Below are positions 10,034-58,128 of a DNA stretch of 64,000 nucleotides, in pieces. Below the pieces are notes generated by a model. It did not search any database, was not told where the DNA came from, and worked only from the letters and a program-made list of their open reading frames with translations. Made by a program: the position numbers and the translations under genes. The stretch is from an uncultured bacterium (GTDB lineage: Bacteria > Acidobacteriota > Thermoanaerobaculia > Multivoradales > JAHZIX01), in contig CBDUPA010000005.1 of assembly GCA_965368975.1 (NCBI GenBank), forward strand, positions 249,099 to 313,098. Reading direction: 5' to 3'. Within the stretch, counting starts at the first letter, position 1. Every line of letters starts with the position of its first letter.

Positions 10034-10125
10034 GCATCTTCTCCTTTATAGCAGGTTAGGGGGGCGATGGTTGGAAGATACCATCGTGCGGAGCACCTTG
10101 GTATCCTGCCTGGATGCACGATCCA

Positions 10126-26500: not shown

Positions 26501-27567
26501 CCGTGCTGGTGACCCGCTATGCCGTCACCGACGCCAAGCAGATCGGTACCCAGGTGTCGATCGGGCGGCCGATTTCCAACTCGCACGCCTACATCGTCGA
26601 CCGCCGCCTGCGGCCGGTGCCGCTGGGTGTCGCCGGTGAGCTGTGCTGCGGAGGTGACGGCGTCACCCGCGGCTACCTCGATCGTCCCGGCCTGACCGCC
26701 GAGAAGTTCATCCCTGACGCCTTCAGCGGACAGGCGGGCGAGCGCATCTATCGTACCGGCGACCTGGTGCGCCACCTGCAAGACGGTCGCCTCGACTTCA
26801 TGGGGCGTATCGACTTCCAGGTCAAGGTGCGCGGCTTCCGCATCGAGCTGGGGGAGATCGAGGCCAGTCTGAGCAAGCATCCGCACGTGCGCGAGGCGGT
26901 GGTGATCACGCGCAAGGACGTGGCGGGTGACAACCGCCTGGTGGCCTACGTTGTGTTCGATGCCGAGCGGCCGGCGCACGAGCTGCCCGCCGGGCCGCGC
27001 GAGCTGCGCACGGTGATGCAAGAATTCCTGCGCGCGACGCTGCCCGACTACATGGTGCCGGTCGATTACGTGCACCTGACCGAGATGCCGCTGTCGTCCA
27101 ACGGCAAGGTCGACCGCCGCCGTCTGCCCGAGCCCGAGCTGCCCGGCGGCAGCAGCGACGAGGGATACGTGGCGCCAGCCAACGAACTGGAGCAGGTGAT
27201 CGCGGGCGTCTGGCAGGAGGTGTTGCAGGTCGACCGCGTTGGCACGCGCGACCACTTCTTCGAACTGGGCGGCAGCTCGCTGCTCATCGCGCGCTTGCGC
27301 AGCCGGCTGCAAGCCGTGCTCGAACGCGAGATCCCGCTGGTCGAGCTGTTCAAGCATCCGACCGTGGCGGCGCAGGCGCAGGCGCTGAGTGCCGGTGGCA
27401 GCATCGAACCGGCCGCCGCCGAACGCTCGCGTGCGCGCTCCCAGACGCGCCGCGACTCCATGCGCAAACTACAGGAGCGGCGCACGCGCCGTGGTGATCG
27501 CGGCCCGCGCGGTGGTCGTGGCGGCCGGGGTCGTGGTGGTCGCGGTGGGCCGGACGACAAGACCTGA
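11596..27567 (+). CDS. NRPS 1: FAAL-ACP-C-A-T-C-A-T-C-A-T-C-A-T (lipoinitiation plus 4 modules, 5323 aa)
   Basis: FAAL ([34 protein letters not shown]), ACP LGLDSL; C motifs [36 protein letters not shown]; four A domains (YTSGSTG.PKG, YGPTE/YGPSE, YRTGD); PCPs GGHSL x3 and GGSSL. GAGGAG RBS. Hand-read codes: A1 DTFWMGGTYK (Val-like aliphatic), A2 DAKNLGLANK (unclear, possibly acidic), A3 DIFNNALTYK (Ala), A4 DVVWEGSVLK (unknown). Confidence 0.95.
16530..16555 (-). repeat. GTAG-type REP hairpin inside the NRPS 1 coding sequence
   Basis: Minus strand reads GTAG-GGGCACCC-cgctgt-GGGTGCCC; 28/30 nt identical to 22640-22669. Confidence 0.75.
19132..19157 (+). repeat. Degenerate REP copy inside NRPS 1 (A2)
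   Basis: gtcg-gggctccc-cacggt-ggaggctc, roughly 19/26 matches to the REP above. Confidence 0.4.
22644..22707. repeat. GTAG-type REP hairpin (minus, 22644-22669) plus an opposed partial copy (plus, 22693-22707) inside NRPS 1 (A3)
   Basis: Minus strand GTAG-GGGCACCC-ccatgt-GGGTGCCC, then GTAGGGGCGGCTCCC on the plus strand 23 nt away. Confidence 0.75.
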
Positions 27568-27701: not shown

Positions 27702-30700
27702 ATGAGCGACTACGAGCAAGGCGCCACTACGGAAGCCAGTATGGACACAAGCGCGGAAGGCATCGCCATTATCGGCTTGGCCGGCCGTTTTCCCGGCGCC
27801 CGCGATATCGAGGCCTTCTGGCGCAATCTACGTGATGGTGTGGAGTCCATCACCTTTTTCACGCCCGAGCAGCTGCAGGAAGCCGGCCTCGACCCGGCGA
27901 TCCTGGAGCAGCCGAATTTCGTGGCCGCCAACGGTATGCTCGAAGACATTGATCGCTTCGACGCCGCCTTCTTTGGCTACACGCCGCGGGAAGCACAACT
28001 GATCGATCCGCAGCAGCGCCTGTTCCTGGAGTGCGCGCAGCACACGCTCGAGCACGCCGGCTACGATCCGGCACGCTTCGACGGCCGCATCGGCCTGTTC
28101 GGCGGTGCCGGCGCCAACTACTATCTGCTCGGCAACCTGGTCAACAACCGGGCGCTGATCGAAGAGATCGGCGTGCTGCAGATTCTGCTGGCCAACGAGG
28201 GGGACTACCTGTGCTCGCGCGTTTCCTACAAGCTCGATCTACGCGGCCCCGTGGCCCTGGTGCAGAGCGCGTGCTCGACCGCCCTGGTTTCGGTGCACAT
28301 GGCCTGCCAGTCGTTGCTCACTGGCGAGTGCGAAATGGCGCTGGCCGGCGGTGTCTCGATCGGCCTGCCGCAGGACCAGGGCTACTTCTACACCGAGGGC
28401 GGCATCCTGTCGCGCGATGGCCATTGCCGTAGCTTCGACGCCAGCTCCACCGGCACGGTCAACGGCAACGGTGTCGGCCTGGTGGCGCTCAAACGGTTGG
28501 AAGATGCACTCGAAGACGGCGACGTCGTGCACGCCGTGCTCCTGGGCTCGGCGATCAACAACGACGGCGCTTCTAAGGTCGGCTTCACGGCGCCCAGTGT
28601 CGAGTGCCAGAGCGAGGTGGTGGGCGAGGCCCTGGGAGTCACTGGCGTCGACGCCGAGACGATCGCCTACATCGAGACCCACGGCAGCGGTACCGCGCTC
28701 GGCGACCCGATCGAGGCGCAGGCACTGATCGACGCCTACGCCGACCACGCCGAGACCAGCGGCTACTGCGGTATCGGCTCGGTCAAGTCGAACATCGGCC
28801 ACACCAACGCTGCCGCTGGCGTCGCCGGCCTGATCAAGGTGGTGCAGGGGCTCGAACACGGAGAGATCCCGCCCAGCCTGCACTTCGAGCAACTCAACCC
28901 CGAGATCGACTTCACCGACACGCCCTTTTTCGTCAATGCCGAGCTGCGTCCGTGGCCGCGCCTCAAGGATCAGCCCCGGCGCGCCGCCATCAGTTCCTTC
29001 GGCCTCGGTGGTACCAACGCGCACGCCATCGTCCAGGAAGCACCGGCCGTCGAGCCGTCGGGCCCGTCGCGCGGTCATCAGCTGCTGCTCGTCTCGGCAC
29101 GTAGCGAGGCGGCGCTGGACGCGGCGACGCGCAATCTCGCCGACCACCTGCAAGCACATCCGGACCTGAAGCTCGCCGACGCCGCCTTCACGCTGCAACT
29201 CGGTCGCGCCGAGATGGACATGCGGCGTGCCGTGGTGGTGCGCGACGATGGCGGTGAGGCCGGCAAGAAGGCGGCCATCGAAGCGCTGCGCGCCGAGCCG
29301 GTGGCCACCAAGGTGGACAAGGACACGCGCCCCGTCGTCTTCTTGTTGCCTGGCCTGGGTGACCACTACGTGCAGCTGGGGCGCCGTCTCTACGAGGACG
29401 AGCCGACCTTCCGCGAGGACTTCGACGCCTGTGCCGAGGGCCTGCTCGAACCGTTGGGCGTCGACATCCGCGAGATCCTGTTCCCGGGCGCTGCGCCGCC
29501 CGAGCCGACAGACGAAGAAGCCGCCGCCGGCACCGACTTCAAGGCCCTGCTGCGCCGCGGCGGCGGTGAGGTCGACGAGGCGACCGCGCGCCTCAACCGC
29601 ACCGTGCACGCGCAGCCGGCGCTGTTCGCCGTCGAGTACGCGCTGGCACGGCTGCTGATGGATTGGGGCCTCGAGCCTTCGGGCCTGATTGGCTACAGCC
29701 TCGGCGAGTACGTCGCCGCCTGCCTGGCCGGTGTGCTCGAGCTCGACGACGCGTTGGCCCTGGTGGCCAAGCGCGCGCGCCTGATCGACGATTTGCCCGA
29801 GGGTGCCATGCTGGCGGTGCCGCTGCCTGAGAGCGAGCTGCTACCCAAGCTGAAGAAGCACCCGGACCTCGACCTGTGTGCCACCAACGGCCCCAACCTG
29901 AGCGTCGCGGGCGGTCCGGTGCCGGCGGTCGATGCGCTGGAACAGGAACTGCAAGCGGCCGGTGTCACCTGCATCCGCCTGACCACCACCCACGCCTTCC
30001 ATACGCGCATGATGGCGCCGGTCGCCGAGGCGCTGACTGAGCTGGCTAGCGGTTTCGAGCTGCAGACGCCCGAGATCCCGCTGCTGTCCAACGTCACCGG
30101 CACCTGGCTGAGCGACGCCGATGCTACCGATCCCGCCTACTGGGCGCGTCACCTGTGCGGCACCGTGCGCTTCGCCGAGAGCCTGAGCGAGCTGCTCAAG
30201 GACGCGCGCCGCTTGCTGATCGAGTTGGGACCGGGCAACGCTCTCGGTACCCTGATCAAGCAGCACCCGAGCGTCAAGCCGGAGCAGGTGGTGATCTCGG
30301 CCTTGCGCCACCAGAGCGAGCGCCGTTCGGACGTCGCCCACTTGCTGCGCGCCCTCGGCCACGCCTGGCTGGCCGGCGCCCGCATCGACTGGCACGGCTT
30401 CTATGCCCACGAGACACGCCGCCGTGTCGTGCTGCCCGGCTATCCCTTCGAGCGTCGGCGCTACTGGATCGATCCCAACCCGGCCGAGAGCGGTGCTGCC
30501 GGCAAGCGCGGCCGTGCGGGTTCCGGAGGCGGCCAGGTCGGCATCGCTGAGATGCGCAAGGGCAAGTTGCCGCTGGCCGACTGGTTCTATCTACCATCCT
30601 GGCGCCAGACGCCCACCCGCCTGCCGGCCGACGGTCGCGCACCCGAGGACGCCATGGAGACCGGCCGCTGGCTGATCTTCCTCGAAGCTGACTCTGACGC

Positions 30701-32648
30701 GCACGGCGTCGGCGGTGACCTTCTGCGCCGCCTGCGTGCCGCGGGTCATGACGTCATCGGTGTGCGAGCTGGCGACGCCTATGCCGCCGCGTCCGAAGGG
30801 GGAGCCGAAGGCGATGGGGTCTTCACCGTGCGTCCGTCTGAGCGCGGCGATTACCTCAGCCTGCTGCGTCAGCTCAAAGAAGATGGGGAGCTATCCCATC
30901 AAGAGCTGCCCAGCCGTATCTTGCACCTGTGGAGCCTGACCGAGGAGCACCCGTCGTTCGACGTGGCGCAAGCGCACGGGCTGCACAGCCTGATGGCCCT
31001 GGTGCAGGCCTACGCCGACATCGACGCTGGTGCTCCGCTGCGCCTCGGCGTGGTCGGCAACCGGTTGCAGGATGTCGCCGGCGGCGAGGGCGTCGAAGCG
31101 GAGAAAGCTCCGCTAGTCGGTGCCTGCAGGGTGATTCCGCAGGAATTGCCGCACGCCTGGGCCGCCGCCATCGACGTCGTGCTGCCGCCGCCCGAAGGCC
31201 AGAACCGGCGTCGCCGGCTGGTCGATCAGCTGCTGGCCGAGATGACCGTCGCGCCGACCAGTGCCGATGCGGCCTGGTCAACGCCGGTGATTGCCCTGCG
31301 CGGTCCGCACCGCTGGGTGCAGGACTTCGAGCCCGTGCCCCTGCCGCCCGCCACGGGCAAGGCAGGCAGCGCTACTGGCGACCAGCCACCACGCCTGCGC
31401 CAGGGCGGTAGCTACCTGGTTACCGATGGCACCAGCGAGCTGGGCCAGGAGTTGACCGAGTTCCTGCTGCGTCGTTTCGGCGCCCAGGTTACCGCGGTGC
31501 TGCCTCCTGGCTGGGGCGAAGATGCCGGTAGCGATGAAGGTGCAGAGCCCCAAGCTGGTGAAGCCCAGCAAGCGATGGCCGCGGCGCTGCGTGAGCGCCA
31601 GGCGCGGGCTCGCGCCCGGCTGGACGGCCTGGCCGAGGAGTTCCCGTCGCTGGTGCTCGAACACCACGATGTCACCGACGCGGCGGCCGTGCGTCAACTG
31701 GTCGACGGCGTGCGCCAGCGCCAGGGTGGCTTGCACGGCGTCCTGCACACTGCCACCGACTTCTCGGGCGGCCTGATCCAGGTCAAGACGACCGCCGACC
31801 TGACCGCCGTCCACGGCGCCGTGGCGCGCGGTGCCCTGGCCTTGGAAGAGGCTCTGAGCGGCGCCGCCGCGGACACGGCCGTTCCGGACTTCGTGTTGCT
31901 GTCCTCGACCTCGACCGCCGTCACTGGCGGCCTGGGTCAGCTCGACCTGTGCGCCGCGGGTTCCGTCCTCAGCGCCCTGGCCGACCGCCGCGCCGCCGCC
32001 GGCGACAGCCATTGGTTGACCGTCGGCTGGGGTTCCTTCGCCTGGGACCAGTGGGGCTTGCCGGGCATGATGGCCAACCCCGAGCTGCAGAAGCAGGTGC
32101 GCGAGAATCTCGAGACCTACGGTGTCTCGGCCGGCGAGAGCGTCGACGTCTTCCAGCGCGCCCTGGCCAGCCGTCAGCCGCGCCTGGTGGTGTCGACGCA
32201 GGACTTGCACACCGTCATTGCCAACACCACCGCGGTGACCGCCGAGAGCCTGCTCGAACAGGTGTCACAGACCACCGAGTTGCACCCACGCGGCGACTTG
32301 TCCGTGCCTTACGAGGCGCCGACAGACGACGTCGAGGCGCAGCTGGCGGTCATCTGGCAGCGCCTGTTCGGCATCGACAAGGTCGGCATCCACGACAACT
32401 TCTTCGAACTCGGCGGCTACAGCCTGCTGGGCATCCAGATGGTGACCCAGGTGCGCCAGACCTTCGACTTCGAAATCCAGATCACCGAGCTGTTCGACAC
32501 CCCGACCGTCGCCGGCCTGGCCGGGCGCATTCGTGGTGACGAGAGCGAACCGGAACTGGACGAGGACGACATGGCCGACCTGCTGAGCCAGGTCGAAGGC
32601 ATGAGCCCCGAAGACATGGCGGCGCTGCTCGCCGAGAGCGACGGCTGA
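27702..32648 (+). CDS. Type I cis-AT PKS module: KS-AT-KR(degenerate)-ACP (1648 aa)
   Basis: KS VQSACST (Cys), ETHGSGT, NIGHT (hybrid-type KS); AT GYSLG and HAFH (malonyl type); KR fold with DGTSELG and GQLDLCAAG; carrier FFELGGYSL; acidic C-terminal docking helix. GGAG RBS. Confidence 0.93.
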   Translation: MSDYEQGATTEASMDTSAEGIAIIGLAGRFPGARDIEAFWRNLRDGVESITFFTPEQLQEAGLDPAILEQPNFVAANGMLEDIDRFDAAFFGYTPREAQLIDPQQRLFLECAQHTLEHAGYDPARFDGRIGLFGGAGANYYLLGNLVNNRALIEEIGVLQILLANEGDYLCSRVSYKLDLRGPVALVQSACSTALVSVHMACQSLLTGECEMALAGGVSIGLPQDQGYFYTEGGILSRDGHCRSFDASSTGTVNGNGVGLVALKRLEDALEDGDVVHAVLLGSAINNDGASKVGFTAPSVECQSEVVGEALGVTGVDAETIAYIETHGSGTALGDPIEAQALIDAYADHAETSGYCGIGSVKSNIGHTNAAAGVAGLIKVVQGLEHGEIPPSLHFEQLNPEIDFTDTPFFVNAELRPWPRLKDQPRRAAISSFGLGGTNAHAIVQEAPAVEPSGPSRGHQLLLVSARSEAALDAATRNLADHLQAHPDLKLADAAFTLQLGRAEMDMRRAVVVRDDGGEAGKKAAIEALRAEPVATKVDKDTRPVVFLLPGLGDHYVQLGRRLYEDEPTFREDFDACAEGLLEPLGVDIREILFPGAAPPEPTDEEAAAGTDFKALLRRGGGEVDEATARLNRTVHAQPALFAVEYALARLLMDWGLEPSGLIGYSLGEYVAACLAGVLELDDALALVAKRARLIDDLPEGAMLAVPLPESELLPKLKKHPDLDLCATNGPNLSVAGGPVPAVDALEQELQAAGVTCIRLTTTHAFHTRMMAPVAEALTELASGFELQTPEIPLLSNVTGTWLSDADATDPAYWARHLCGTVRFAESLSELLKDARRLLIELGPGNALGTLIKQHPSVKPEQVVISALRHQSERRSDVAHLLRALGHAWLAGARIDWHGFYAHETRRRVVLPGYPFERRRYWIDPNPAESGAAGKRGRAGSGGGQVGIAEMRKGKLPLADWFYLPSWRQTPTRLPADGRAPEDAMETGRWLIFLEADSDAHGVGGDLLRRLRAAGHDVIGVRAGDAYAAASEGGAEGDGVFTVRPSERGDYLSLLRQLKEDGELSHQELPSRILHLWSLTEEHPSFDVAQAHGLHSLMALVQAYADIDAGAPLRLGVVGNRLQDVAGGEGVEAEKAPLVGACRVIPQELPHAWAAAIDVVLPPPEGQNRRRRLVDQLLAEMTVAPTSADAAWSTPVIALRGPHRWVQDFEPVPLPPATGKAGSATGDQPPRLRQGGSYLVTDGTSELGQELTEFLLRRFGAQVTAVLPPGWGEDAGSDEGAEPQAGEAQQAMAAALRERQARARARLDGLAEEFPSLVLEHHDVTDAAAVRQLVDGVRQRQGGLHGVLHTATDFSGGLIQVKTTADLTAVHGAVARGALALEEALSGAAADTAVPDFVLLSSTSTAVTGGLGQLDLCAAGSVLSALADRRAAAGDSHWLTVGWGSFAWDQWGLPGMMANPELQKQVRENLETYGVSAGESVDVFQRALASRQPRLVVSTQDLHTVIANTTAVTAESLLEQVSQTTELHPRGDLSVPYEAPTDDVEAQLAVIWQRLFGIDKVGIHDNFFELGGYSLLGIQMVTQVRQTFDFEIQITELFDTPTVAGLAGRIRGDESEPELDEDDMADLLSQVEGMSPEDMAALLAESDG

Positions 32649-32744: not shown

Positions 32745-36221
<3,477 letters not shown>

Positions 36222-36342: not shown

Positions 36343-38715
36343 GTGGATTTACAATTCAAAAAAGCGCTGATCTATTGCGCGTTGTCGTGCCTGGCTTGCG
36401 GGGCTGCTACGGTGCAGGCCGAACTTGGAGACGTGGTGCAGGCACCGGCGCCCGAGCCGGCGGTGGAAGCGGCTCGGTTGGAGGAGGAACTGGCCGGGAT
36501 CGAGGGACGCGAGCGTTTGCGTTTGCTCGCGGACCTGGTGGCGATCTACCGTTGCATCGCGCCACATCGAGCCCTGGAGCACGGCGAAGAGGTCCAGGGG
36601 CTGTTGGTACAGCAGGCGCTGACACCCCAGGTCGAAGTGCGATTGCTGACGGACCTCAGTGACAGCGCGTACATCACAGGTCAGAACGATGTCGCGCTGA
36701 ATTGGGCCTACTTTGCCCTGCGTGCGGCGCGGCAGGCCGGGTACGAGTGGGGACGAGCGCAGGCGCTCTGGCGCATGGCGCGCATCCATGGGACAGATCT
36801 GGATTTTGAGCCGGCGATGCAGACGCTCGAAGAAGTGCAGGCCATCGCGCAGCAACTTCAGTCGCCGGAGCTGCTGTCAGCGTACTACTCGACGTTGGCA
36901 TTGACGCACGATTACCAGGGGCACACCCTGGATTTCCGCGAGGCGCTCTACGAGAGCCTGCAGCAGGCACGTCTGGGAGGCGACGAGTTCCAGCTCGGGC
37001 TGGCGCTGCTCAACATGGGTTTCGATTACTCGACTCAACAGAACCCTGATGCCGCGGCAGATTACCTAGAGGAGGCGCTCGCGATCTTCCGCCGCCGCGG
37101 CGATATCTTCTATATCGCGGCGACGATGGAAGTGTTGGCCGGTGTGCTGCACGCGCAGGGCAAGTCGGGGCAGGCCCTGATGACGGTGACCGAGGCGGAA
37201 CGCCTGGGGCGCAAGTTGGGGCACAGTACGGTCGTCGGACGGGCGTTGCTGCAGCTGGCAGAGATTCAGCACGACCTCGGTCTCTCGGAGTCGGCGCTCG
37301 AGACGATCGAAGGCGGACTGGACCATTGGCGGCGCACAGAGAGTGAGCCGTGGCTCGGTGCGGGGCTGGTGAGCAAGGGGGAATACCTGATCAGCTTGGG
37401 ACGCCCGCGCGAGGCGTTGGAGATCCTGCAGCAAGCTCGAGAGATCTTGGAACGGCTCGACCGCAGGGAGACCTTGTTGTTGGCGATCGAGGTGACGGCG
37501 CGCGCCTATGAGGCGCTGGGTCAGTACGGGGAAGCTCTGGATTCCTACCGGCGCTTCGGGGAGCTGCGGACAGAGCAGGCCGAGGAGGGGAGTCAGGAAC
37601 ACATCGAGGAGCTACAGGCCCGCTTCGAGAGCGCCGAGAAAGATCGCGCCATTGCTGATCTCGAACTGACCCGCGTGCTCGATAGCTCCAAGCTGGCACG
37701 GGAGCGTGGGTGGCGGCGAGTCCTGGTGGGGTCTGCAGTGTTGCTGCTGGGCACGGCCCTTGCGGTGATCTTCGCCTACCTGCTACAGCGTCGTGGACGC
37801 GTTGAGCTGCAGGAGGCTTATGGTCACCTGGATACCGCGCACAAGTCGCTGGAGGCGCACAGCTCGGAGATCCGTGAGCTGGTGCGTGAGAAGGAGGAGC
37901 TATTCGCCCTCGCCGCCCACGATCTACGAGCGCCCGTGGTCAGCATTCGCGAGGTGTCACAAGATCTGCAGGAAGACTTGCGGCAGGTACCAGATGCGCT
38001 GGAAGCGCTGGCTTCGGCAGGGTTTCCAAGCGAGGCCGAGGCCAGCAACGAGGATCGCCAGCGACTGCTACGGCTCGTCGGTGATGAGATGCCACAGGAG
38101 TTGGGGAAGATCCGCGAAGCGACGGGACGCCTGGAGACCCTGGTCGACGGTCTGCTCAAGTTGTACCGCTTGAGCCGCAACGCGCTGGAAGCGATGCATG
38201 TCGACGTGACGGAGTTGGTCGAACGGGTCGTGGCTTCCTACAGTTTCGAGATCGAGCAGGCGCGAGCCGTGGTTCGGATCGCCAAGTTGCCGGTGGTGGT
38301 GGCGGATCGCACGGCTCTAGAGACGGTGTTTGGCAACCTCTTGCACAATGCCATCAAGTACCTGGACCCGGAGCGCCCGGCGGAGATCGAGGTGAGCTGC
38401 GAGCGCCGCCGCGGCGAGACGGTGTTCCACGTCCACGACAACGGACGTGGCATCGCGGCCGACGACGTGGAGCGCGTGTTCAAGGTCTTCGCTCGCGTCG
38501 GGTCGCAGGACCAGCCAGGGGAAGGCATCGGCCTGGCGGCGGCGCGCACGCTCGTTCGCCGTCACGGAGGGTTTCTGTGGTGCACTTCACGGGAGGGTGA
38601 GGGCAGTACCTTCAGCTTCAGCCTGCCCGATGAGCCGCGACACGCGACGATCGCCATCCCTCGACCGAGACGGTTGGACACCGGTTCCTGGGAGGTCCGC
38701 GGTGCTGCGAGCTGA
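36343..38715 (+). CDS. Membrane sensor histidine kinase with extracytoplasmic TPR domain (paralog 1)
   Basis: Signal peptide (..AATVQA), TPR-like helices, one TM (VLVGSAVLLLGTALAVIFAYLL), H-box AHDLRAP, NLLHNAIKY, DNGRGI, GEGIGL, GSTFSF. Confidence 0.9.
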   Translation: MDLQFKKALIYCALSCLACGAATVQAELGDVVQAPAPEPAVEAARLEEELAGIEGRERLRLLADLVAIYRCIAPHRALEHGEEVQGLLVQQALTPQVEVRLLTDLSDSAYITGQNDVALNWAYFALRAARQAGYEWGRAQALWRMARIHGTDLDFEPAMQTLEEVQAIAQQLQSPELLSAYYSTLALTHDYQGHTLDFREALYESLQQARLGGDEFQLGLALLNMGFDYSTQQNPDAAADYLEEALAIFRRRGDIFYIAATMEVLAGVLHAQGKSGQALMTVTEAERLGRKLGHSTVVGRALLQLAEIQHDLGLSESALETIEGGLDHWRRTESEPWLGAGLVSKGEYLISLGRPREALEILQQAREILERLDRRETLLLAIEVTARAYEALGQYGEALDSYRRFGELRTEQAEEGSQEHIEELQARFESAEKDRAIADLELTRVLDSSKLARERGWRRVLVGSAVLLLGTALAVIFAYLLQRRGRVELQEAYGHLDTAHKSLEAHSSEIRELVREKEELFALAAHDLRAPVVSIREVSQDLQEDLRQVPDALEALASAGFPSEAEASNEDRQRLLRLVGDEMPQELGKIREATGRLETLVDGLLKLYRLSRNALEAMHVDVTELVERVVASYSFEIEQARAVVRIAKLPVVVADRTALETVFGNLLHNAIKYLDPERPAEIEVSCERRRGETVFHVHDNGRGIAADDVERVFKVFARVGSQDQPGEGIGLAAARTLVRRHGGFLWCTSREGEGSTFSFSLPDEPRHATIAIPRPRRLDTGSWEVRGAAS

Positions 38716-41068
38716 TCTGCCGTCGGCGGTTCTGCTGATGGTGGTGTCGGTCGTTGTCGTCGCCTCGCAGACCTCCCCGGAAATTCAGCCACTGTCCGTC
38801 CCGGCGGCGCCCGCCTTTCCCTCGGAGACCTTGCCAGACGGGTTGTCAGAGGTGCCTGATGTACCGGACCTGGACATCCCCGAACTCGAGGCGCAGCTCG
38901 AGGACACAGAGGGTGTGGAGCGATTGTGGGCGCTGGCCGATCTGTTGACCGCCTATCGGCGCTTGGCGCCGCAGAAGGGGCTGGTCTACGGCGAAGAGGT
39001 CGAGCAATTGCTGGCTGCGCTTCCCGCCGGTGACACCCCGTTGTCGCCTCCGCGCATCAACCGCTTGCTCAATGACCTCAGCGACATGGCCTTCATGACC
39101 GGTGACTACGAGAGCACGGTACATTGGGCGCGTCGCGCTCTGGAAGAGGCGGAGGGGGCGAACTATCAGAAAGGGATCGCGCAAGCGCTGTGGCGCGTGG
39201 CGGTCATCCAGGGAATGAACGTGGAGTACGAGGCTGGGCTGTCGACTCTCGAACGAGTGCGCATCATTGGCACGGCTCTCGACGACCCGGACTTGCTCTC
39301 TGCCTACCACTCCGCCGCTTCGGTGGTGTACAGCTACAAGGGCCGGCTGCTCGACGCCAGCGAAGCGCAGGTCGCCAACCTGGAGTACGCCCGTCAGGGT
39401 AAGGACTCGTTTCAGCTCGGGCTGGCGCTGCTCAACATGGGGATCGAGTACGGAAGCAAGGAGCCGGAGCGGGCTGAGGACTACCTGCGCGAGGCCCTGC
39501 AGGTCTTCGAGCGACGGCGGGAGGTCTTCTACATCGCGCTGGCAAAGGAGTTGTTGGCGGGAGTGCTGCACGACCTGGGGCAGTCGCAGCGAGCCTTGGA
39601 GCTGTTCGCCGAGGTCGAGCGCTACAGCCGGCAGCTGGGAGACAGCGAGGTCATGGGGCGGAGCCTGCCGTCGCTGGCCGAGGTCTATTTCGATCTCGGT
39701 CGCGGCGACGAAGCGCTACGCGCTCTGGATGAAGGGATCGCGCTCTGGCGGCGCCTGGGCAACGATACTTGGGTGAGTTCCTGCACGGCGATGAAGGGTT
39801 GGTACCTGCTGCAGCTCGAGCGGCCCCGGCAGGCTTTGAGCGCCCTGGAGGATGCTCGCCAGATCATGGAGGAGCAGGGAGACGCCTACGCCTTGCCGTG
39901 GGTCTACTCGGCGCTGGCAGATACCGAGGAAGCACTGGGTAACTATCCGCAAGCCGTGACCCGGTATCGTCGCTTCCTGCAATTGCAGGCCGAAGCCGAA
40001 GCCCGCGATGCTCGAGTGCGCCTCGAGGAGCTACAGGTGCGCTTCGAGAACGCGGCCAAAGACAGTGAAATCGCCGACCTGGAGCTGCAGCAGGCGTTGC
40101 GTCAGGCCGAGTTGTCCCGCGAGCGCTGGCTTGTTCATAATCTGTTGGTGTTCGCGGCCTTGCTGCTCGTCCTGACGGCCGTGGTGATATCTGCCTACCG
40201 GGTGCAGCGCAGGCGCCGCTTGGAACTGCAGGATGCCTACTCGCGGCTGGATGCTGCGCACCGGACGCTGGAAGCGCACAGTGAAGAGATTCGCGAACTG
40301 GTGCGCGAGAAGGAAGAGCTCTTTGCACTGGCAGCGCACGATCTACGGGCACCTGTGGTCAATATTCGGGGCTTCTCCGAAGAGCTGCGGCGCAGCCTCG
40401 AGCAGATACCCGAGGTATTGCGAGAGTTGCCGCCCGACGAGGTCAAGTGGCAGCAAACCCTGGACCTGGTGCGCGAAGAAATGCCGGAGGATCTGCACCA
40501 TGTCTGCTTCGCCACCCAGCGCCTGGAATCTCTGGTCGAGGGCTTGCTCAAGCTCTATCGATTGAGCCGCAACGAGCTCGAGCCGGTGCCGGTGGATGTG
40601 GGCGAGTTGACGTCCGACCTGCGGACGGGCTTCGCTTTCGAGATCCAGCGAGCACGGGCTGAGGTGCGCGTGCAACCGATGCCGGTGGTGACCGCCGACC
40701 CCGCGGCGCTCGAGACCATCTTCAGCAACCTCCTGCACAATGCCATCAAGTACCTGGACCCGACGCGTCCGGGCGTGATCGAGGTCAGCTGTGAGCCGCG
40801 TCACGGCGAGATGGTGTTCCACGTGCAGGACAATGGTCGCGGCATTGCGGCTGAAGACCTGGAGCGGGTGTTCAAGGTTTTCTCGCGGGTCGGGCCGAAA
40901 GAGGTTGCCGGCGAGGGGATCGGTTTGGCGGCGGTGCGCACTTTGGTGCGTCGCCACGGTGGCTTCATCTGGTGCAATTCGAAGTTCGGGGAAGGCAGCA
41001 CTTTCAGCTTCAGTCTGCCCGACGATCCACGGCACACGGCGGTGACGGTGCCGCTGCGCCAAGTCTGA
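38702..41068 (+). CDS. Membrane sensor histidine kinase with extracytoplasmic TPR domain (paralog 2, 788 aa)
   Basis: Start re-assigned to GTG 38702 (GGAGG at 38691), giving a hydrophobic signal peptide; colinear with paralog 1 (FQLGLALLNMG, EIRELVREKEELFALAAHDLRAPVV, NLLHNAIKYLDP). Confidence 0.88.
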   Translation: MLRADLPSAVLLMVVSVVVVASQTSPEIQPLSVPAAPAFPSETLPDGLSEVPDVPDLDIPELEAQLEDTEGVERLWALADLLTAYRRLAPQKGLVYGEEVEQLLAALPAGDTPLSPPRINRLLNDLSDMAFMTGDYESTVHWARRALEEAEGANYQKGIAQALWRVAVIQGMNVEYEAGLSTLERVRIIGTALDDPDLLSAYHSAASVVYSYKGRLLDASEAQVANLEYARQGKDSFQLGLALLNMGIEYGSKEPERAEDYLREALQVFERRREVFYIALAKELLAGVLHDLGQSQRALELFAEVERYSRQLGDSEVMGRSLPSLAEVYFDLGRGDEALRALDEGIALWRRLGNDTWVSSCTAMKGWYLLQLERPRQALSALEDARQIMEEQGDAYALPWVYSALADTEEALGNYPQAVTRYRRFLQLQAEAEARDARVRLEELQVRFENAAKDSEIADLELQQALRQAELSRERWLVHNLLVFAALLLVLTAVVISAYRVQRRRRLELQDAYSRLDAAHRTLEAHSEEIRELVREKEELFALAAHDLRAPVVNIRGFSEELRRSLEQIPEVLRELPPDEVKWQQTLDLVREEMPEDLHHVCFATQRLESLVEGLLKLYRLSRNELEPVPVDVGELTSDLRTGFAFEIQRARAEVRVQPMPVVTADPAALETIFSNLLHNAIKYLDPTRPGVIEVSCEPRHGEMVFHVQDNGRGIAAEDLERVFKVFSRVGPKEVAGEGIGLAAVRTLVRRHGGFIWCNSKFGEGSTFSFSLPDDPRHTAVTVPLRQV

Positions 41069-41211: not shown

Positions 41212-44200
41212 GTGAAGCAGCCTTCCCATATCGAGGACGTCTATCCGCTCTCGCCCTTGCAGCAGGGCATCCTCTTTCACTGTCTGGAGTCGCCGCTCGC
41301 TGGTGTCTACTGCGAGCAGGTCGCCGCCGAACTGGTGGTGAGGCCGAGCGAAGCGAAAGCTTCCGCGGACGCGCCCGTCGCCGTGCCGGTCCTGGCACAC
41401 GCCTGGAAGCAGGTGGTAGAGCGGCATGCCGTTTTGCGGACCGGCTTTCTCTGGCGTGGTCTCAAAGAGCCCGCCCAGGTCGTGCATCGCCGGGTGCGCC
41501 CGGAAGTCGACGTGATCGATCTGCGCGGCTTGGCGCGGACGCACGTCGAGACTCGCTTGGGCGAACTCCAGGACGCCGACCGGCGTCGCGGCTTCGACTT
41601 CGAGCGGCCGCCGCTCTTCCGGCTCTCCGTTGTGCTGTTGGACGCGCGCCGCTGTGTTCTGGTGTGGACGTTTCATCACCTGCTGCTCGACGGCTGGTCG
41701 ATTCCGCGTGTGCTGGCCGAGGTCTTTGGCACCTACCGGGCCCTGCGCAGTGGACAGGCGGCCCCGGAGTGGCCGTCGCCGCCGCCGTACAAGCGCTACA
41801 TCGGCTGGCTGCGCAAGCGTGACCGTGCCGCCGCCCAGGAGGTCTGGACGCGTCAGCTCGCCGGCCTCGGTGCGCCGACGCCACTGCCTGCGCCGGTTCC
41901 GGCGGCGCACGCGCGCCGGTCCGAGGAGGCGTCCGAGCTGCGCTACCGCACGCGTGTGATCAAGCTGCCACCGAGGCTCGGGCCGGCGTTGCAAGCGCAC
42001 TGTCGCCAGCTCGGTGTCACCCTGGGTACGCTGATGCAGGGCATCTGGGCCGTGCTCTTGCGCCGCTACAGCGGTCGTGACGACGTCCTCTTTGGGCTGG
42101 TCAACAGTGGTCGTCCACCAGCGCTGCCGGGCGTCGAGACGATGATCGGTCTGTTCATCAACACCGTGCCGGTGCGCGCACGCTTCGCGCCAGGGATGTC
42201 GTGGGCGTCGGCGTTGCGGCAGCTGCAGGCCGAGAGTGCCGAGTGGCAGCCGCACTCCTACGTGCCGCTGGCCGACCTCCAGGGCTGGAGTGACGTACCG
42301 CGCGGCCAGCCGCTGTTTGAAAGCCTACTGGTGGTCGAGAACTACCCGCGCAACCCCGCCTCGGCGTCTCAGGGCTTGGGTTTCGACGTCCAGCTGCGGC
42401 CACAGCAGCTGACTACCAGCTATCCCTTGACCCTGGCGGTGTTACCGCAGGAAGACTTCTCGGTCTTCGTGGTGCGTGATCAGCGTCGTTTCTCGGACAC
42501 CTTTGCCCTGCGTGTACTGGAGCATGTGCGGACGCTGCTGGAAGCGGTCGCCGGACTTCCCGCCGAGACTTCCGGCGAGACCTTGGCGCTCGAAGCGTTG
42601 CCACTGCTGACTCGAGGGGAGCGCCAGCAGTTGGTGGTGGAGTGGAGCATCGGTGGTGCTGCGCGCTCGATCGAGATGGAGCTGCTCGACGCAGGAAACG
42701 GCACGCTCGACGGGCGTGTTTTTGCTCGTGCCGCGAAGAGGCCGGAGGCCATCGCGGTGGTCGATGCCGGGGACCGACACGCGCACTGGCTGAGCTACGG
42801 TGAGCTGGCGCGGCGGGCAGAGCGTGCCGCCGACGTGCTACACCGGCAGGGAGTGCAGCCGGATCAGCCGGTGCCGGTCGAACTCGACGCTGAGCGGCCG
42901 CGCAACGTCGAGCTGGTGATCCAGCTGCTCGCCATCCTGCGCGCCGGCGGTGCGTACTTGCCGATCGATCCAGGGCTGCCGGAAGAACGACGGCGGTGGA
43001 TGCTGGCGGATGCGGTTGCAGACCTCCAGCCTTTCGCTCAGGGCTGCCTTGCGGCGCAGCCGCATTCAGGTTCCTTGTCGCTCGCTTACCTTCTCTACAC
43101 CTCTGGTTCCACCGGCCGTCCCAAGGGCGTCGCGGTGCCGCATCGCGCCGTCTTGCGGCTGGTCGACCAGCATGCGCGCGCACTGCGATCCAGTGCTACG
43201 GACGTCTACCTGCAACTGGCGCCGATCGAATTCGACGCCGCTACGCTGGAGCTTTGGGCACCACTGACGGCCGGTGGGCGCCTGGTGCTCTATCCCGGTC
43301 GAACCCCCGACCTCGACCGCTTGCAAGCCGTGCTATGCGAGCAACGCGTCGATACGCTGTGGCTGACTGCCGGCTTCTTCCAGCAGCTCGCCGAGGAACG
43401 CCCCACGCTGCTGCGTGGGGTGCGTCGGCTGCTCACCGGCGGCGACGTGGTGCCGCCGGGGGCGGTGCGTCGACTGCGCCGGGTACTGCCGGGCGTGCAG
43501 GTGATCAATGGCTATGGACCGACCGAGAACACGACCTTCACGACCTTCCAGCCGTTCTCCGACAACGACCTACGAGAGGCCGAGCAGGGCGCCCCGCTGT
43601 CGATCGGCCGGCCGCTTGACGCCACCACCGTCTATGTCCTGAGTCATGACTTGCGGCCCGTTCCCGCGGCCGTGCCGGGGGAGCTGTTCACCGGCGGCGA
43701 GGGGTTGGCGCGTGGCTACCACGGCCTGCCGAGCCGCACCGCGGTCAGCTTTGTGCCCGATCCGTTCGCCGACGCAGAGGGTGGTGGTGGGCGCCTGTAC
43801 CGGACGGGCGACCTGGCGCGCTGGCGTGGCGATGGCCGGCTCGACTTCCTCGGGCGTCTCGACAACCAGGTCAAGCTGCGCGGCTTCCGCGTCGAGCCGG
43901 GGGAGATCGAGAGCGTGCTGGCGTCCCATCCGGCCGTCGAGACGGCGGCAGTAGTGGTGGCGGGCCAGGGAGCGTCGGGCAAGCGCTTGCTAGCCTGGGT
44001 CGTGCTGGCGGATGCAGGGGAGCCAGACGGGATTCTCGACTTCTTGCGGGCTCGCCTGCCGGCGCCGCTCGTGCCCTCGGCTCTAGGCGTCCTCGACGCC
44101 TTGCCGCTGACCAGTCGCGGCAAGGTCGACCGCCGCCAGCTGGCGCGGCGACCAGCCCCGGACGCGTCGAGCCTGGCCCGGCGCCCGCCATCGACCGCCA

Positions 44201-47200
44201 CTGAGCGGCGGTTGGCGGCACTGTGGAGCGAGCTGCTGGAGGTCGAAGAGGTGTTCGCCGACGATGACTTCTTCGAACTCGGTGGCCACTCGCTGCTCGC
44301 CATGCGCTTGGTGGCGCGTCTGCGGCAAGACCTCAAAGTCGATCTGCCGGTCGGTGTCCTGTTCGAGACGCCGACCGTGGCGGCATTGGCCCTGCGCGTC
44401 GATCAGCAACAAGCCGACGCCGAGCGCGCGGCACTGCCGCCGCTGCACGCGGTCGAGCGCACCGAGACGGAGGACAGTGAAGCGGTCCTGCCCCTGTCCT
44501 TCGCCCAGGAACGTCTGTGGTTCCTGGCCCGTCTCGAGCCGCACAGCCCGGCCTACAACATCCCGCTGCCCCTGCTGCTGCGTGGCCAGCTGCGGCCTGC
44601 GGCCTTCGAAGCCGCCTGGCTCGACCTGGTGCGTCGCCACGAGGTGCTGCGCACGCGCTTCGACGAGCAGGACGGCCGTGCCGTACAGCGCATCGGCGAT
44701 CCGTCGCGGCCGGCACCGTGGTGGTTGCAGCTGGTGTGGATCGACCTGAGCGCTCTCGACGCGGCGGCCCGTCGGCGCCAGGTGGTGCGTCTGGCGATCG
44801 CCGAGACGTTGCGCCCCTTCGACCTGCGCACCGGTCCCATGGTGCGCGCGGTGGTGCTGCGCGGCGAATGTTCGGCAGGTGGGGGCATCCGTGAGCATGC
44901 CTTGCTGCTCAACCTGCATCACATCGCGGGCGATGGCTGGTCTTTGGGAGTGCTGGTGCGGGAATTAGCGGCCCTATACACGGCGCGGGTGGAGGACACT
45001 CACTTGGGAGCGTCTTTGCCCTCCCTACCCGTCCAATACGGCGACTTCGCCGTCTGGCAGCGTGGCTGGCTGACCGGCGAGGTGCTCCAACGTCAGGTCG
45101 AGTACTGGCGTACCCAGCTTGCCGATCTGCCGCCCCTCTTCGAGTTGCCGACGGACGGACCCAGACCGGCCGTGCAGAGCTTGCGCGGTGCGACGCTGCC
45201 GGTGCGTTTCGGTGCGGCGCGCAGCACGGCTCTGCGACAGCTGGCGCAGCGCCACGGTGCGACGCCTTTCATGGTGTTGTTGGCACTCTTCCACCTGCTG
45301 CTTGGCCGCTGGGCCGACCGCCGCGACCCGGTTGTCGGTTCGCCGGTCGCCGGTCGGCGGCATCCGGCAGTCGAGGGGCTGATCGGCTTCTTCGTCAACA
45401 CCCTGGTGCTGCGCGGTGATCTGAGCTCTGCTGAGGACGGTGAGACCCAGACCCCCACCGAGCCGAGCTTTGCCGAGCTGCTGCGCCGTGCCCGCCGCCA
45501 GGCCCTCGACGCCTACGCGCACCAGGATCTGCCGTTCGAGAAGCTGGTCGACGAGCTGCGCCCCGAGCGCAGCCGTGCCTACTCGCCGGTGTTCCAGATC
45601 ATGCTCGGCCTGCAGAATGCGCCGGTGGGCGACGCAGAACTGCCCGACCTGGAGCTGCGCCCGCTGATCGAGGCGGTCGGCGGCAGCGTGCCCCAGGGTG
45701 TGATCTCCAAGTTCGACCTGTCGCTCATGTTGGGCGAGGCCGGAGCCGATTCGGCGCTCGGGGCCGGCAGTTTCCACGGCGAACTCGAGTACTGCGTCGA
45801 CCTCTTCGACGTCACCAGCATGCAGCGTCTGCGACGCCAGCTCTTCGCCTTGCTCGATGCCGCGACCGAGGCACCCGATGTGCCAGCCCGCAGTCTGTCG
45901 ATTCTCGACGCTGCGCAGCGCCATCAGCTGCTGCGAGAGTGGAACGACACGGCGCAGATGTGGCCGGCCCCAGCGACCTTGCCGGCCGTCCTGGCGGCGC
46001 GGGCGGCTAGCCAGCCGGGAGCCACCGCGGCATGGCTGCCCGCATCGGAGCCGGACCCTGCAGGGCTCGACGGCGAGGACTTGCTGGCGGAGACGCTGAG
46101 CTACGGCGACTTGCAGCAGCGCGTCGTGGTGCTGGCCCAACAGCTGCACCGCCTCGGTGTCAGCACCGAGACACGCGTCGCTTTGAGCCTCGAGCGTGGT
46201 CTCGAGATGTGGGTGGCCATGCTGGCCGTTCTCGCCGCTGGTGGTGCCTATGTGCCCCTCGACCCCGCTTTCCCGGCGCAGCGGCGCAGCTTCATGCTGC
46301 ACGACTCGGGGGCTCGCTGGCTCCTGGTCGACGACCCGCACGGCACGCAAGAGCTAGAGCTGCCACCGGGAGTGCGCGTCTTGCCGCTGGCGGAGCTCTT
46401 GGTGGATCCCGAGACCGAAGCGGGTGGGACGCAGCTGCCGGTGATCGATCCGGACCAGCTGGCCTACGTGCTCTACACCTCAGGTTCTACCGGGCGCCCC
46501 AAAGGGGTTCAGATCAGCCACGGCAGCCTGCTCAACTTCCTGCGCAGCATGGCGCGGCGTCCCGGCCTGGCCGCGTCCGACCTGCTGCTGGCGGTGACCA
46601 CGATTTCCTTCGACATCGCGGGCCTGGAACTCTATCTGCCGCTGGTGTGCGGTGCGCAGCTGACGGTCGTGCCGCGCGAGGTAGCGATGCACGGGGATCG
46701 TTTGGCCCGCCTGCTGAGCGCCGCCTCCAACCGCGTGGCCCTGGCCAGTCCGCCGGGCAAGGTGGTGGTCCAAGCCACGCCCGCGACCTGGCGGCTGCTG
46801 CTCGACAGTCGCTCGACGACCGGCGGCGAGTGGCTCGGCTTGCCCGAGGGGCGTAGGCTGCTCGCCCTGTGCGGCGGTGAAGCACTACCGGTCGAGCTGG
46901 CGCGACGCCTACGGCAGCGCGGCGCCGAGCTGTGGAACGTCTACGGTCCCACCGAGACGACCATCTGGTCGACCCTCCATCCCCTCGGTGGACCGCTGGC
47001 ACACGTGGAAGGACGCACCGCCGATGCGGCGCCGCGTTCCGGTACGGCCTCTCTCGGTAGGCCGCTGGCCAACACCGACGTGCATCTGCTCGACGCCGCT
47101 CTGCGCCCCGTCGCTCCCGGTGCCTGGGGAGATCTCTACATCGGTGGTGCCGGCCTGGCACGCGGCTATCTCGGCCGTCCGGCGCTGACTGCGGAGCGTT

Positions 47201-48042
47201 TCATCCCCAACCCGTTCTCGAACGCTTCTTCTGTTCCCGCCGCGACGCGCCTCTATGCGACCGGTGACGTCGCCCGCCGGCGTGGGGACGGCGATCTCGA
47301 ATTTCGCGGCCGGCGCGACACACAGGTCAAGGTGCGTGGCTTCCGTATCGAGCTGGGCGAGATCGAGGCACGGTTGGCGCAGCTACCGGGGGTGTCGCGA
47401 GCCGTGGCGCACGTCCACACCGGGCTTGCCGGTGGTACGCAGCTGGTGGCCTACCTGGTCCTCGATCCACTCGATGAACGGGAGGCGACCCCACCCGCCG
47501 AAGAATCTGTGCGGGAACACCTGCGCCAGCACCTCCCCGACTACATGATTCCGGCTGCGGTCCTGGTGCTGGACGCCCTGCCGCTGACCCCCAACGGCAA
47601 GCTCGACCGCCGTGCCCTGCCGGCGCCAGAGTTGCCGGAAGCCGCCTACGAGCCACCGGCAGGCTGGAAGGAAGAAGCTCTGGCCGCTGCCTGGATGCAG
47701 GTGTTGCAGGTAGAGCGCGTGGGTGCCGGAGACGCTTTCTTCCGTCTCGGTGGCGACTCGATCCTGGTCCTCCAAGCAATTGCCGCGGCGCGCGAAGGGG
47801 GCCTCGCCCTGGAGCCAGGCTGGTTCTTCCAGTACCCGACGCTGCGCGAGCTGGCCGAGCGTGCAGAACCGATGGAGTCGATCGATACCGTCCCCGCCGG
47901 CTCGACTGCGAGCGAGTCCAGGGCCACTTTGGGGGCTGACGGAGTGGGGCCGAGGGACGACGAGGACGACGAGGACGATTTCGGCTGGAGCGACGACGAC
48001 TTCGACGAACTCAGCGACGCGGTCGACGAGATGCTTGGCTGA
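41212..48042 (+). CDS. NRPS 3: C(DCL-like)-A(Val)-T-C-A(Gly)-T, no TE (2276 aa)
   Basis: GTG 41212 with GGGAG RBS; IEDVYPLSPLQQGILFH, HHLLLDGWS and GLFINTVPVR are DCL-type signatures; A codes DALWLGGTFK (Val) and DILQLGVIWK (Gly); PCPs GGHSL and GGDSI; ends in the FGWSDDDF tail. Confidence 0.95.
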   Translation: MKQPSHIEDVYPLSPLQQGILFHCLESPLAGVYCEQVAAELVVRPSEAKASADAPVAVPVLAHAWKQVVERHAVLRTGFLWRGLKEPAQVVHRRVRPEVDVIDLRGLARTHVETRLGELQDADRRRGFDFERPPLFRLSVVLLDARRCVLVWTFHHLLLDGWSIPRVLAEVFGTYRALRSGQAAPEWPSPPPYKRYIGWLRKRDRAAAQEVWTRQLAGLGAPTPLPAPVPAAHARRSEEASELRYRTRVIKLPPRLGPALQAHCRQLGVTLGTLMQGIWAVLLRRYSGRDDVLFGLVNSGRPPALPGVETMIGLFINTVPVRARFAPGMSWASALRQLQAESAEWQPHSYVPLADLQGWSDVPRGQPLFESLLVVENYPRNPASASQGLGFDVQLRPQQLTTSYPLTLAVLPQEDFSVFVVRDQRRFSDTFALRVLEHVRTLLEAVAGLPAETSGETLALEALPLLTRGERQQLVVEWSIGGAARSIEMELLDAGNGTLDGRVFARAAKRPEAIAVVDAGDRHAHWLSYGELARRAERAADVLHRQGVQPDQPVPVELDAERPRNVELVIQLLAILRAGGAYLPIDPGLPEERRRWMLADAVADLQPFAQGCLAAQPHSGSLSLAYLLYTSGSTGRPKGVAVPHRAVLRLVDQHARALRSSATDVYLQLAPIEFDAATLELWAPLTAGGRLVLYPGRTPDLDRLQAVLCEQRVDTLWLTAGFFQQLAEERPTLLRGVRRLLTGGDVVPPGAVRRLRRVLPGVQVINGYGPTENTTFTTFQPFSDNDLREAEQGAPLSIGRPLDATTVYVLSHDLRPVPAAVPGELFTGGEGLARGYHGLPSRTAVSFVPDPFADAEGGGGRLYRTGDLARWRGDGRLDFLGRLDNQVKLRGFRVEPGEIESVLASHPAVETAAVVVAGQGASGKRLLAWVVLADAGEPDGILDFLRARLPAPLVPSALGVLDALPLTSRGKVDRRQLARRPAPDASSLARRPPSTATERRLAALWSELLEVEEVFADDDFFELGGHSLLAMRLVARLRQDLKVDLPVGVLFETPTVAALALRVDQQQADAERAALPPLHAVERTETEDSEAVLPLSFAQERLWFLARLEPHSPAYNIPLPLLLRGQLRPAAFEAAWLDLVRRHEVLRTRFDEQDGRAVQRIGDPSRPAPWWLQLVWIDLSALDAAARRRQVVRLAIAETLRPFDLRTGPMVRAVVLRGECSAGGGIREHALLLNLHHIAGDGWSLGVLVRELAALYTARVEDTHLGASLPSLPVQYGDFAVWQRGWLTGEVLQRQVEYWRTQLADLPPLFELPTDGPRPAVQSLRGATLPVRFGAARSTALRQLAQRHGATPFMVLLALFHLLLGRWADRRDPVVGSPVAGRRHPAVEGLIGFFVNTLVLRGDLSSAEDGETQTPTEPSFAELLRRARRQALDAYAHQDLPFEKLVDELRPERSRAYSPVFQIMLGLQNAPVGDAELPDLELRPLIEAVGGSVPQGVISKFDLSLMLGEAGADSALGAGSFHGELEYCVDLFDVTSMQRLRRQLFALLDAATEAPDVPARSLSILDAAQRHQLLREWNDTAQMWPAPATLPAVLAARAASQPGATAAWLPASEPDPAGLDGEDLLAETLSYGDLQQRVVVLAQQLHRLGVSTETRVALSLERGLEMWVAMLAVLAAGGAYVPLDPAFPAQRRSFMLHDSGARWLLVDDPHGTQELELPPGVRVLPLAELLVDPETEAGGTQLPVIDPDQLAYVLYTSGSTGRPKGVQISHGSLLNFLRSMARRPGLAASDLLLAVTTISFDIAGLELYLPLVCGAQLTVVPREVAMHGDRLARLLSAASNRVALASPPGKVVVQATPATWRLLLDSRSTTGGEWLGLPEGRRLLALCGGEALPVELARRLRQRGAELWNVYGPTETTIWSTLHPLGGPLAHVEGRTADAAPRSGTASLGRPLANTDVHLLDAALRPVAPGAWGDLYIGGAGLARGYLGRPALTAERFIPNPFSNASSVPAATRLYATGDVARRRGDGDLEFRGRRDTQVKVRGFRIELGEIEARLAQLPGVSRAVAHVHTGLAGGTQLVAYLVLDPLDEREATPPAEESVREHLRQHLPDYMIPAAVLVLDALPLTPNGKLDRRALPAPELPEAAYEPPAGWKEEALAAAWMQVLQVERVGAGDAFFRLGGDSILVLQAIAAAREGGLALEPGWFFQYPTLRELAERAEPMESIDTVPAGSTASESRATLGADGVGPRDDEDDEDDFGWSDDDFDELSDAVDEMLG

Positions 48043-48083
48043 CGGTGAAGCTGATGTTCGGCGTTTGGTGTTCGGCGGAGGCG

Positions 48084-48722: not shown

Positions 48723-48792
48723 GGTGATCGAGGATATCAAGATCTGGACAACCGGATGCGGCGAACGCCGCCGAACAGACTGATCCAGCTGC

Positions 48793-53713: not shown

Positions 53714-53831
53714 TATAGGCCATGGTCGATGTGCTTCAGTCGCTGGCATACCTGGTCGAGGTGGGGAATAATGGGGATCTAGAGAAACCTCGCCTTTTCA
53801 ATATCCCATTTCTCGTATCAGGATGGCCGAC

Positions 53832-58013: not shown

Positions 58014-58128
58014 CCGTCGAGTACGGGCTGGGCGAGTAGCGCCGGGTTGGAGAATCGTGGATAATAAAGCGCCTTGGAACACCGGCGCCCATCATCTCGA
58101 TTCCCTTTGCTCGACTAGGATGACTCAC

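Follow-up and report, generated by a model that had tools for sequence, protein, structure and literature searches.

Putative E-less COM-like docking tails on two consecutive NRPS subunits and a possible acceptor beyond the window

Two consecutive subunits of the assembly line described here, NRPS 2 and NRPS 3, end in the same eight-residue core, FGWSDDDF, and no thioesterase (TE) follows the second one in the window, that is, in the whole 64-kb stretch of DNA that was analysed. Where would NRPS 3 deliver its chain? The reading preferred here (rough probability, 0.45) is that the FGW tail would act as a donor docking peptide for an N-terminal, DCL-like condensation domain, named C*, and that the chain of NRPS 3 would be passed in trans to another synthetase starting with C*. 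Judged from sequence, the tail/C* pair is best filed as an E-less T/C docking junction resembling those of the COM type, used twice in succession and implying an acceptor outside the window.

Layout of the assembly line

The source genome (G000) is a 7.1-Mb draft in 59 contigs, and the features of the window are listed in Table 1. Both TPR/HATPase_c genes (36343..41068) are located between NRPS 2 and NRPS 3. Public annotation gives NRPS 3 a length of 2276 aa, matching a start at 41212, and a translation was also made from 41173. The genes 3' of NRPS 3 comprise a hypothetical gene, a LolA-like gene and purH on the opposite strand, and two DUF7933/DUF11 repeat proteins are encoded beyond purH. 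For the window ORFs without a name, no family was returned by Pfam or NCBIfam.

Table 1. Positions of the assembly-line features, numbered from the first letter of the window; the window itself is given by its contig coordinates.
Feature	Position	Strand	Basis or remark
Window	G000:C5:249099-313098		last 64 kb of 313-kb contig
NRPS 1: FAAL-ACP and four C-A-T modules, basic C-terminal tail	11596..27567	+	Pfam on two halves, motif map, C-terminus
PKS module KS-AT-KR-ACP	27702..32648	+	Pfam
NRPS 2: N-terminal docking helix, C, A (DILQLGVIWK), T (GGDSIL), tail	32745..36221	+	Pfam, translation, hand-read code
NRPS 2 tail, 39 aa after carrier domain	36102..36218	+	FGWSDDDF core 36159-36182
Two paralogous TPR and HATPase_c histidine-kinase-like genes	36343-38715, 38447-41068	+	Pfam, NCBIfam
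NRPS 3: C*-A(Val)-T-C-A(Gly)-T-tail	41212..48042	+	Pfam, translation, hand-read codes
C*: NRPS 3 N-terminal DCL-like condensation domain	41212..42651	+	solved relatives, own clade in tree
NRPS 3 terminal carrier domain, GGDSIL type	47707..47856	+	nearest database carriers precede E domains; AF2 pLDDT ~94
NRPS 3 tail, 61 aa: low-confidence acidic linker, then helix	47857..48039	+	core 47980-48003, predicted helix 47992-48036

As the preliminary description had stated, no TE follows NRPS 3. Neither NRPS 2 (C-A-T) nor NRPS 3 (C-A-T-C-A-T) contained a TE, R or E domain by Pfam, no TE, R or terminal C domain was detected by Pfam and NCBIfam in the 64-kb window, and the thioesterase family PF00975 gave no match on contig C5 and 17 matches in the whole 7.1-Mb genome. 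A 261-aa ORF at 48045-48830 was considered as a coupled release enzyme and rejected, as no family was assigned to it and its composition is that of a shadow ORF.

Translation reproduced exactly the C-termini that had been quoted for NRPS 2 and NRPS 3, each consisting of a GGDSIL carrier and a like, acidic tail. The A domains ending the two subunits share the hand-read code DILQLGVIWK, and the first A domain of NRPS 3 reads DALWLGGTFK; the identical code upholds the earlier placing of one kind of A domain before both tails, while its reading as Gly, like that of DALWLGGTFK as Val, is a presumed assignment.

FGW tails and the C* acceptor type

Six-frame translation of the whole genome placed FGWSDDDF at exactly two sites, the tails of NRPS 2 and NRPS 3, where all eight residues (8/8) are identical, giving the consecutive subunits a like putative docking peptide. 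The two DNA copies of the core show 2 synonymous differences per 24 nt, and the terminal domains of the two subunits share 56% (A) and 59% (T) identity. A core kept at 8/8 next to such flanking identities indicates that it is old and conserved, and excludes a recent copy. The search of the genome for FGWSDDDF-type tails that the preliminary description had proposed thus returned these two cores, plus a related tail on a PKS-NRPS hybrid of contig C17.

The closest database relatives of the GGDSIL carriers of NRPS 2 and NRPS 3 are carriers located before the LTPIQxWF starts of E domains, and we take the GGDSI(L) carrier to be what is labelled the 'T_E type'. Among the 65 megasynthase ORFs of the genome, 20 GGDS-type carrier domains were counted, the rest of which precede E or special C domains. 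A carrier followed by an FGW tail was found in 3/32 carrier-ending megasynthase ORFs (NRPS 2, NRPS 3 and the C17 hybrid); since 7 megasynthase ORFs run off their contig at the 3' end in this 59-contig draft, more tails may be hidden.

AF2 modelling of the NRPS 3 T-tail region gave a folded T domain, a linker with pLDDT ~45 and a helix over the last 15 residues with pLDDT 75-79. Over ~18 residues, the tail gave a gap-free alignment with a ...DFPLA..L.Q..LD.LL element, hydrophobic positions 2, 4, 12 and 15/16 being kept in this comparison, which was made without a statistic. In the source genome, the element closes E domains ahead of DCL-type C domains; it also joins GGDSIL carriers to DCL-type C domains in cis (P0030) and terminates split subunits (P0236, G227 and G228). 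A truncated E domain as the origin of the tail was rejected, as no LTPIQxWF start is present. From sequence and structure prediction, the FGW tail of NRPS 2 and NRPS 3 looks like a docking peptide for the donor side of a junction, with a predicted amphipathic helix, and its earlier description as a docking tail feeding NRPS 3 can be worded as "very probably" a donor docking element, on the grounds of sequence, co-occurrence and gene adjacency.

On the acceptor side, NRPS 3 has only ~6 residues ahead of the first C-domain core motif. The best solved relatives of its C* are McyB C1 (8hlk, 327 bits), PvdL, SrfA-C, TycB and BacC, matched from the first residues. When the 192 C/E-like domains of the source genome were placed in a tree, 13 of them formed the DCL clade: 6 of these are internal and come after E domains, and 6 are N-terminal and form a group of their own, C* (support 0.84). 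The C* of NRPS 3 falls in this clade alongside the post-E C domains, in agreement with its initial assignment as a DCL domain and likely acceptor. The further claim that it is the sole cognate acceptor in the window stands, it being the only DCL-like C domain there, and does not carry over to the whole genome, where five more synthetases start with C*. Each of the six C* sits at an N-terminus, and for five of them no NRPS lies within ~14 kb upstream. A complex prediction of the NRPS 3 C* with the NRPS 3 T-tail, run without controls, scored below the mark and gave no verdict for or against binding.

COM (communication-mediating) donor/acceptor pairs operate at NRPS E/C junctions, as in TycA/TycB, SrfA-B/SrfA-C and BacB/BacC. 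In the account of PMC12402864, the COM acceptor is carried by the C domains of SrfA-C, TycB and BacC, the donor is pictured as an amphipathic helix, and cis-COM linkers are likely ancestral to trans-COM pairs. The window junction resembles such pairs in its putative acceptor, which is N-terminal in a C domain of the DCL type with homology to SrfA-C, TycB and BacC, and in the C-terminus of NRPS 3, a short acidic helix predicted to be amphipathic. A likeness of its tail to the cis E-C junctions of the genome may be a further parallel, judged over ~18 residues and without a statistic. It differs in the position of the donor: the COM donors described in that source come after an E domain and co-occur with E domains (PMC12402864), whereas here the donor follows the carrier of a Gly module, and no E domain (a third Condensation-like match) lies past the last T of NRPS 2 or NRPS 3. 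The core differs as well, being FGW... here and ...DFPLA... at COM-type junctions. In-cis junctions from T to DCL/dual-type C domains (P0030 and P0125) and a split form of them (P0236) combine a GGDSIL carrier, no E domain, a ...DFPLA..L.Q..LD.LL linker and a C domain starting with ...YP(L/V)xP(L)Q.GM; compared with P0030 and P0125, the window junction is split between proteins, its linker has diverged to FGW..DF..IS, and it is found on two successive subunits.

Tails and candidate acceptors outside the window

The third tail of the source genome belongs to a lone PKS-NRPS hybrid (G000:C17:35197-43662; KS-AT-KR-ACP-C-A-T-tail) without an NRPS neighbour, whose architecture equals the window PKS module and NRPS 2 fused together and whose terminal A code is DMTQLGVVWK. 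Relatives of the same family carried one tail each in G001 and G004, ending in ...FGWSRSEGDAILEKL and ...FGWSDEEGDAILEKL, respectively. Across six genomes of the family, a small sample of kin, the tails numbered 3, 1, 1, 0, 0 and 0, and the C* matches above 580 bits numbered 6, 1, 1, 0, 0 and 0 in the same order; tail and C* thus occurred together in 3/3 genomes having either one, and neither was found in the remaining 3. In G001, the tail-bearing hybrid shares a cluster with a C*-start NRPS, another gene lying between them. The single C* of G001 branches outside all six C* of the source genome, indicating that this lineage has expanded the junction, which numbered about one pair at first and now counts three tails and six acceptors.

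In the wider order, 85/300 genomes searched gave a match, and 5 of the 10 full-length tail-like ends listed from other families were inspected. In 3/5 of the inspected ends (G227, G228 and G079), the tail was followed within a few bases by a gene whose product begins with a DCL-like C domain, and in 2/5 (G021 and G271) a KS came next instead of a C domain. The donor module reads Gly in 7/8 tail bearers (NRPS 2, NRPS 3, G001, G004, G227, G228 and G079), the exception being the C17 hybrid.

Broader searches added no tail bearer. The back-translated FGWSDDDF pattern was absent from 60 relatives; a looser pattern hit at least 118 stretches in other species, and none of the 101 motif matches listed comes after a carrier domain, these being chance matches such as the C-terminus of a metallopeptidase. 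A T-tail profile run against 1.84 billion representatives had just two full-length matches, NRPS 3 and the C17 hybrid, and multi-carrier giants dominated the ranking; this search says nothing about how the tail is distributed. Word-indexed T-tail searches, which were confined to set length bands, needed shared 5-residue words and missed the C17 hybrid itself, returned 27 matches for NRPS 2 and 95 for NRPS 3 without a further tail bearer.

Among the C*-start synthetases, the best candidate acceptor for NRPS 3 would be a four-module NRPS (G000:C5:208686-222539) on the same contig and strand as NRPS 3, the two starts being ~81 kb apart and the candidate upstream. It is chosen because its C* is the sister, i.e. 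the closest paralogue, of the NRPS 3 C* (support 0.96), because no loading module was found within 14 kb upstream, where a B12-radical SAM gene is located, and because translational coupling links it to a free-standing C domain of LCL-like type downstream, at C5:222542. The absence of a loader is not specific to this candidate, since the four other C*-start giants are also without a visible donor, and some lines may therefore use C* as a starter. At its C-terminus, the candidate has a basic tail like those located ahead of KS in the window and in G001, and so it may not be the terminating enzyme. About 38 kb separate it from NRPS 1, including homologues of the housekeeping genes plsX, fabD and accBC.

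Proposed route of the growing chain

The proposed junction would be a COM-like E/C junction minus its E domain. Its donor would be an acidic, disordered linker followed by a short helix of amphipathic character, fused straight onto an epimerase-type carrier loaded with glycine, and the partner of the tail would be the N-terminal face of the DCL-type C*. A DCL-type acceptor would call for a D-configured or achiral donor, and the E domain would be dispensable because the donor Gly is achiral, leaving the junction element directly on the carrier. NRPS 2 would then pass a lipopeptidyl-polyketide-Gly to the C* of NRPS 3, which would extend it by Val-Gly and present Gly again on a like carrier and tail. 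With Gly on this carrier and tail, a C* acceptor would be needed once more, leaving the chain unfinished in the window, and the assembly line probably continues on an enzyme encoded elsewhere in the genome.

It is unlikely that the line truly ends with NRPS 3. In that case ...Val-Gly would be released from it, and its tail would be either a relic of a duplicated A-T-tail unit or a means of recruiting a release enzyme in trans, e.g. a thioesterase or a C domain encoded on its own. Such partners could be supplied by a free 295-aa ORF on contig C4, which is the best PF00975 match of the genome, or by the free-standing C domains at C5:222542 and C1:87642; many giant NRPSs of the source genome finish in T without a TE, and the stand-alone C17 hybrid has a like tail and no NRPS neighbour. 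A vestigial tail, however, would not be expected to hold an 8/8 core at 56-59% flanking identity, and the set of Gly, T (GGDSIL) and tail is otherwise tied to a DCL-like C domain downstream.

Docking of the NRPS 3 tail on the C* of the same or another NRPS 3, with lipopeptide-Gly-(Val-Gly)n as the main products, is a doubtful route, even though the feeder NRPS 2 shares the tail core with NRPS 3 and both donors present Gly, the same residue, at the donor site of C*. Like C-terminal docking peptides on consecutive subunits are linked to iterative or flexible use and product ladders in the rhabdopeptide/xenortide (RXP) system as covered in PMC6195595 and PMC9113145, and NRPS 2 and NRPS 3 are likewise consecutive with like C-terminal peptides; the same sources give self- and cross-docking with iteration in rhabdopeptide NRPSs, and skipping after COM swaps, as precedents. 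In RXP systems, the partner of a C-terminal SLiM is a beta-hairpin docking domain at the N-terminus, and the terminal C domain stands alone, whereas NRPS 3 has neither this docking fold nor any other docking domain before its C domain, and the window has no terminal C domain. The window also holds no release function for an iterating line, and five alternative C* acceptors exist in the genome.

The known COM pairs treated in PMC9113145 are promiscuous, making skipping possible, and COM swaps there skip SrfA-B. By these and the rhabdopeptide precedents (PMC9113145), the earlier proposal that a shared donor tail allows iteration or skipping holds in principle; obligatory (Val-Gly)n iteration fits less well than the second alternative of that proposal, a remote acceptor with possible skipping, given the five further C* synthetases. 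Trans hand-off to another C* synthetase is accordingly favoured, from the sequence comparisons, over self-iteration and over skipping of NRPS 3. As the core is common to both tails, bypass of NRPS 3 and re-entry into it would be chemically allowed, and self-iteration and skipping are possible as side routes.

An independent initiator role for NRPS 3, in which C* would be a starter C domain acylating Val and NRPS 2 and NRPS 3 would deliver separate Gly-ended chains elsewhere, is very unlikely: the N-terminal position of all six C*, five of them without an NRPS upstream within ~14 kb, the two regulator-like genes between NRPS 2 and NRPS 3, and the presence among the nearest solved relatives of PvdL C1, which presumably follows an acyl-loading module, agree with it, but the same C type lies beside or clustered with a tail-bearing donor in G001, G227, G228 and G079, and NRPS 2 would be left without an acceptor in its own cluster.

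Trans hand-off through the tail and C* could also be part of something wider. It is conceivable, if improbable, that the FGW tail and C* form a shared, promiscuous docking code that was multiplied in this lineage, from a single tail and a single C* as seen in the sister genus to three and six, respectively, and wires separate lines combinatorially in trans. If so, NRPS 2 or NRPS 3 would feed NRPS 3 again, the NRPS at C5:208686 or the C*-start giants, and the products would include ladders with zero, one or several Val-Gly units and chimeras of multiple clusters, amounting to a natural E-less COM network.

In PMC12402864, the tie of COM-type junctions to E domains is presented as unexplained and as limiting their engineering use. 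A COM-like donor placed directly on a carrier after glycine, if true, would reveal the minimal donor element, provide a portable T/C split site and account for the Gly ends of both NRPS 2 and NRPS 3. For genome mining, the cluster would extend past the window, and tail and acceptor types could be used to connect distant NRPS genes in a genome very rich in NRPSs.

Megasynthases and neighbouring genes of the genome

The source genome (G000) carries a very heavy megasynthase load: 119 Pfam matches to Condensation were obtained across the whole genome, and 65 NRPS/PKS-like ORFs of at least 600 aa were counted, among them stop-to-stop frames of 12957, 13272 and 14804 aa.

Positions of features in the window and on other contigs of the source genome. 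C*, clade of N-terminal DCL-like condensation domains.
Feature	Position	Details
Cysteine desulfurase-like class-V aminotransferase	window 10114-11391	same strand as NRPS 1; TIGR01976, 331 bits, slightly below cut-off
TPR + HATPase_c histidine-kinase-like paralogue pair	window 36343-38715; 38447-41068	inserted between NRPS 2 and NRPS 3
DUF7933-repeat + DUF11 protein, 1375 aa	window 53823-57950
DUF7933-repeat + DUF11 protein, 1660 aa	window 58057-63039
Giant NRPS	C1:44371-61584	C* start
Free-standing DCL-like C domain	C1:87642-89370	C* profile, 488 bits
Giant NRPS	C12:193716-220571	C* start
Stand-alone KS-AT-KR-ACP-C-A-T-tail hybrid	C17:35197-43662 (L003:9198-17642)	minus strand of L003
Giant NRPS	C25:1286-45697	C* start
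5'-cut ORF	C33:3-4946

In the window, the desulfurase-like gene lies 200 bp 5' of the FAAL start of NRPS 1, and the frames of the two TPR + HATPase_c genes overlap by ~270 nt. Long ORFs with ends resembling those of this pair adjoin another NRPS, at C17:67593. Both DUF7933/DUF11 proteins contain 10-12 DUF7933 repeats and an IPTL-CTERM sorting signal. The C17 hybrid, with the A-domain code DMTQLGVVWK, is surrounded by glycosyltransferase genes and has no neighbouring NRPS gene.

Altered condensation motifs and chance tail matches

The C domain of NRPS 2 (window 32745-36221), whose donor should be the PKS ACP, reads HHIVNDW where HHxxxDG is usual. The motif is replaced by SHLVVDA in the free-standing C domain of contig C1, and the C-terminal tail of this protein is basic.

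Loci L047, L058, L081, L087 and L108 of other species were among the listed matches to the loose pattern for the acidic NRPS tail. These are chance matches unrelated to NRPSs: the pattern meets a C-terminal segment, ...HELAHHFGWSD(D/E)DV..IDRWWE, that is conserved within a small family of metallopeptidase-like proteins.

C-termini of the giant synthetases

The giants of contigs C1, C12 and C25 and the 5'-cut ORF of C33 all terminate in a GGHSM-type carrier domain followed by a short acidic tail, and no TE was found at these four ends. Because a carrier domain resembling the GGHSM type sits before a TE in cis in G001, a relative of the same family, the sequences suggest that these four C-termini are split T|TE ends.
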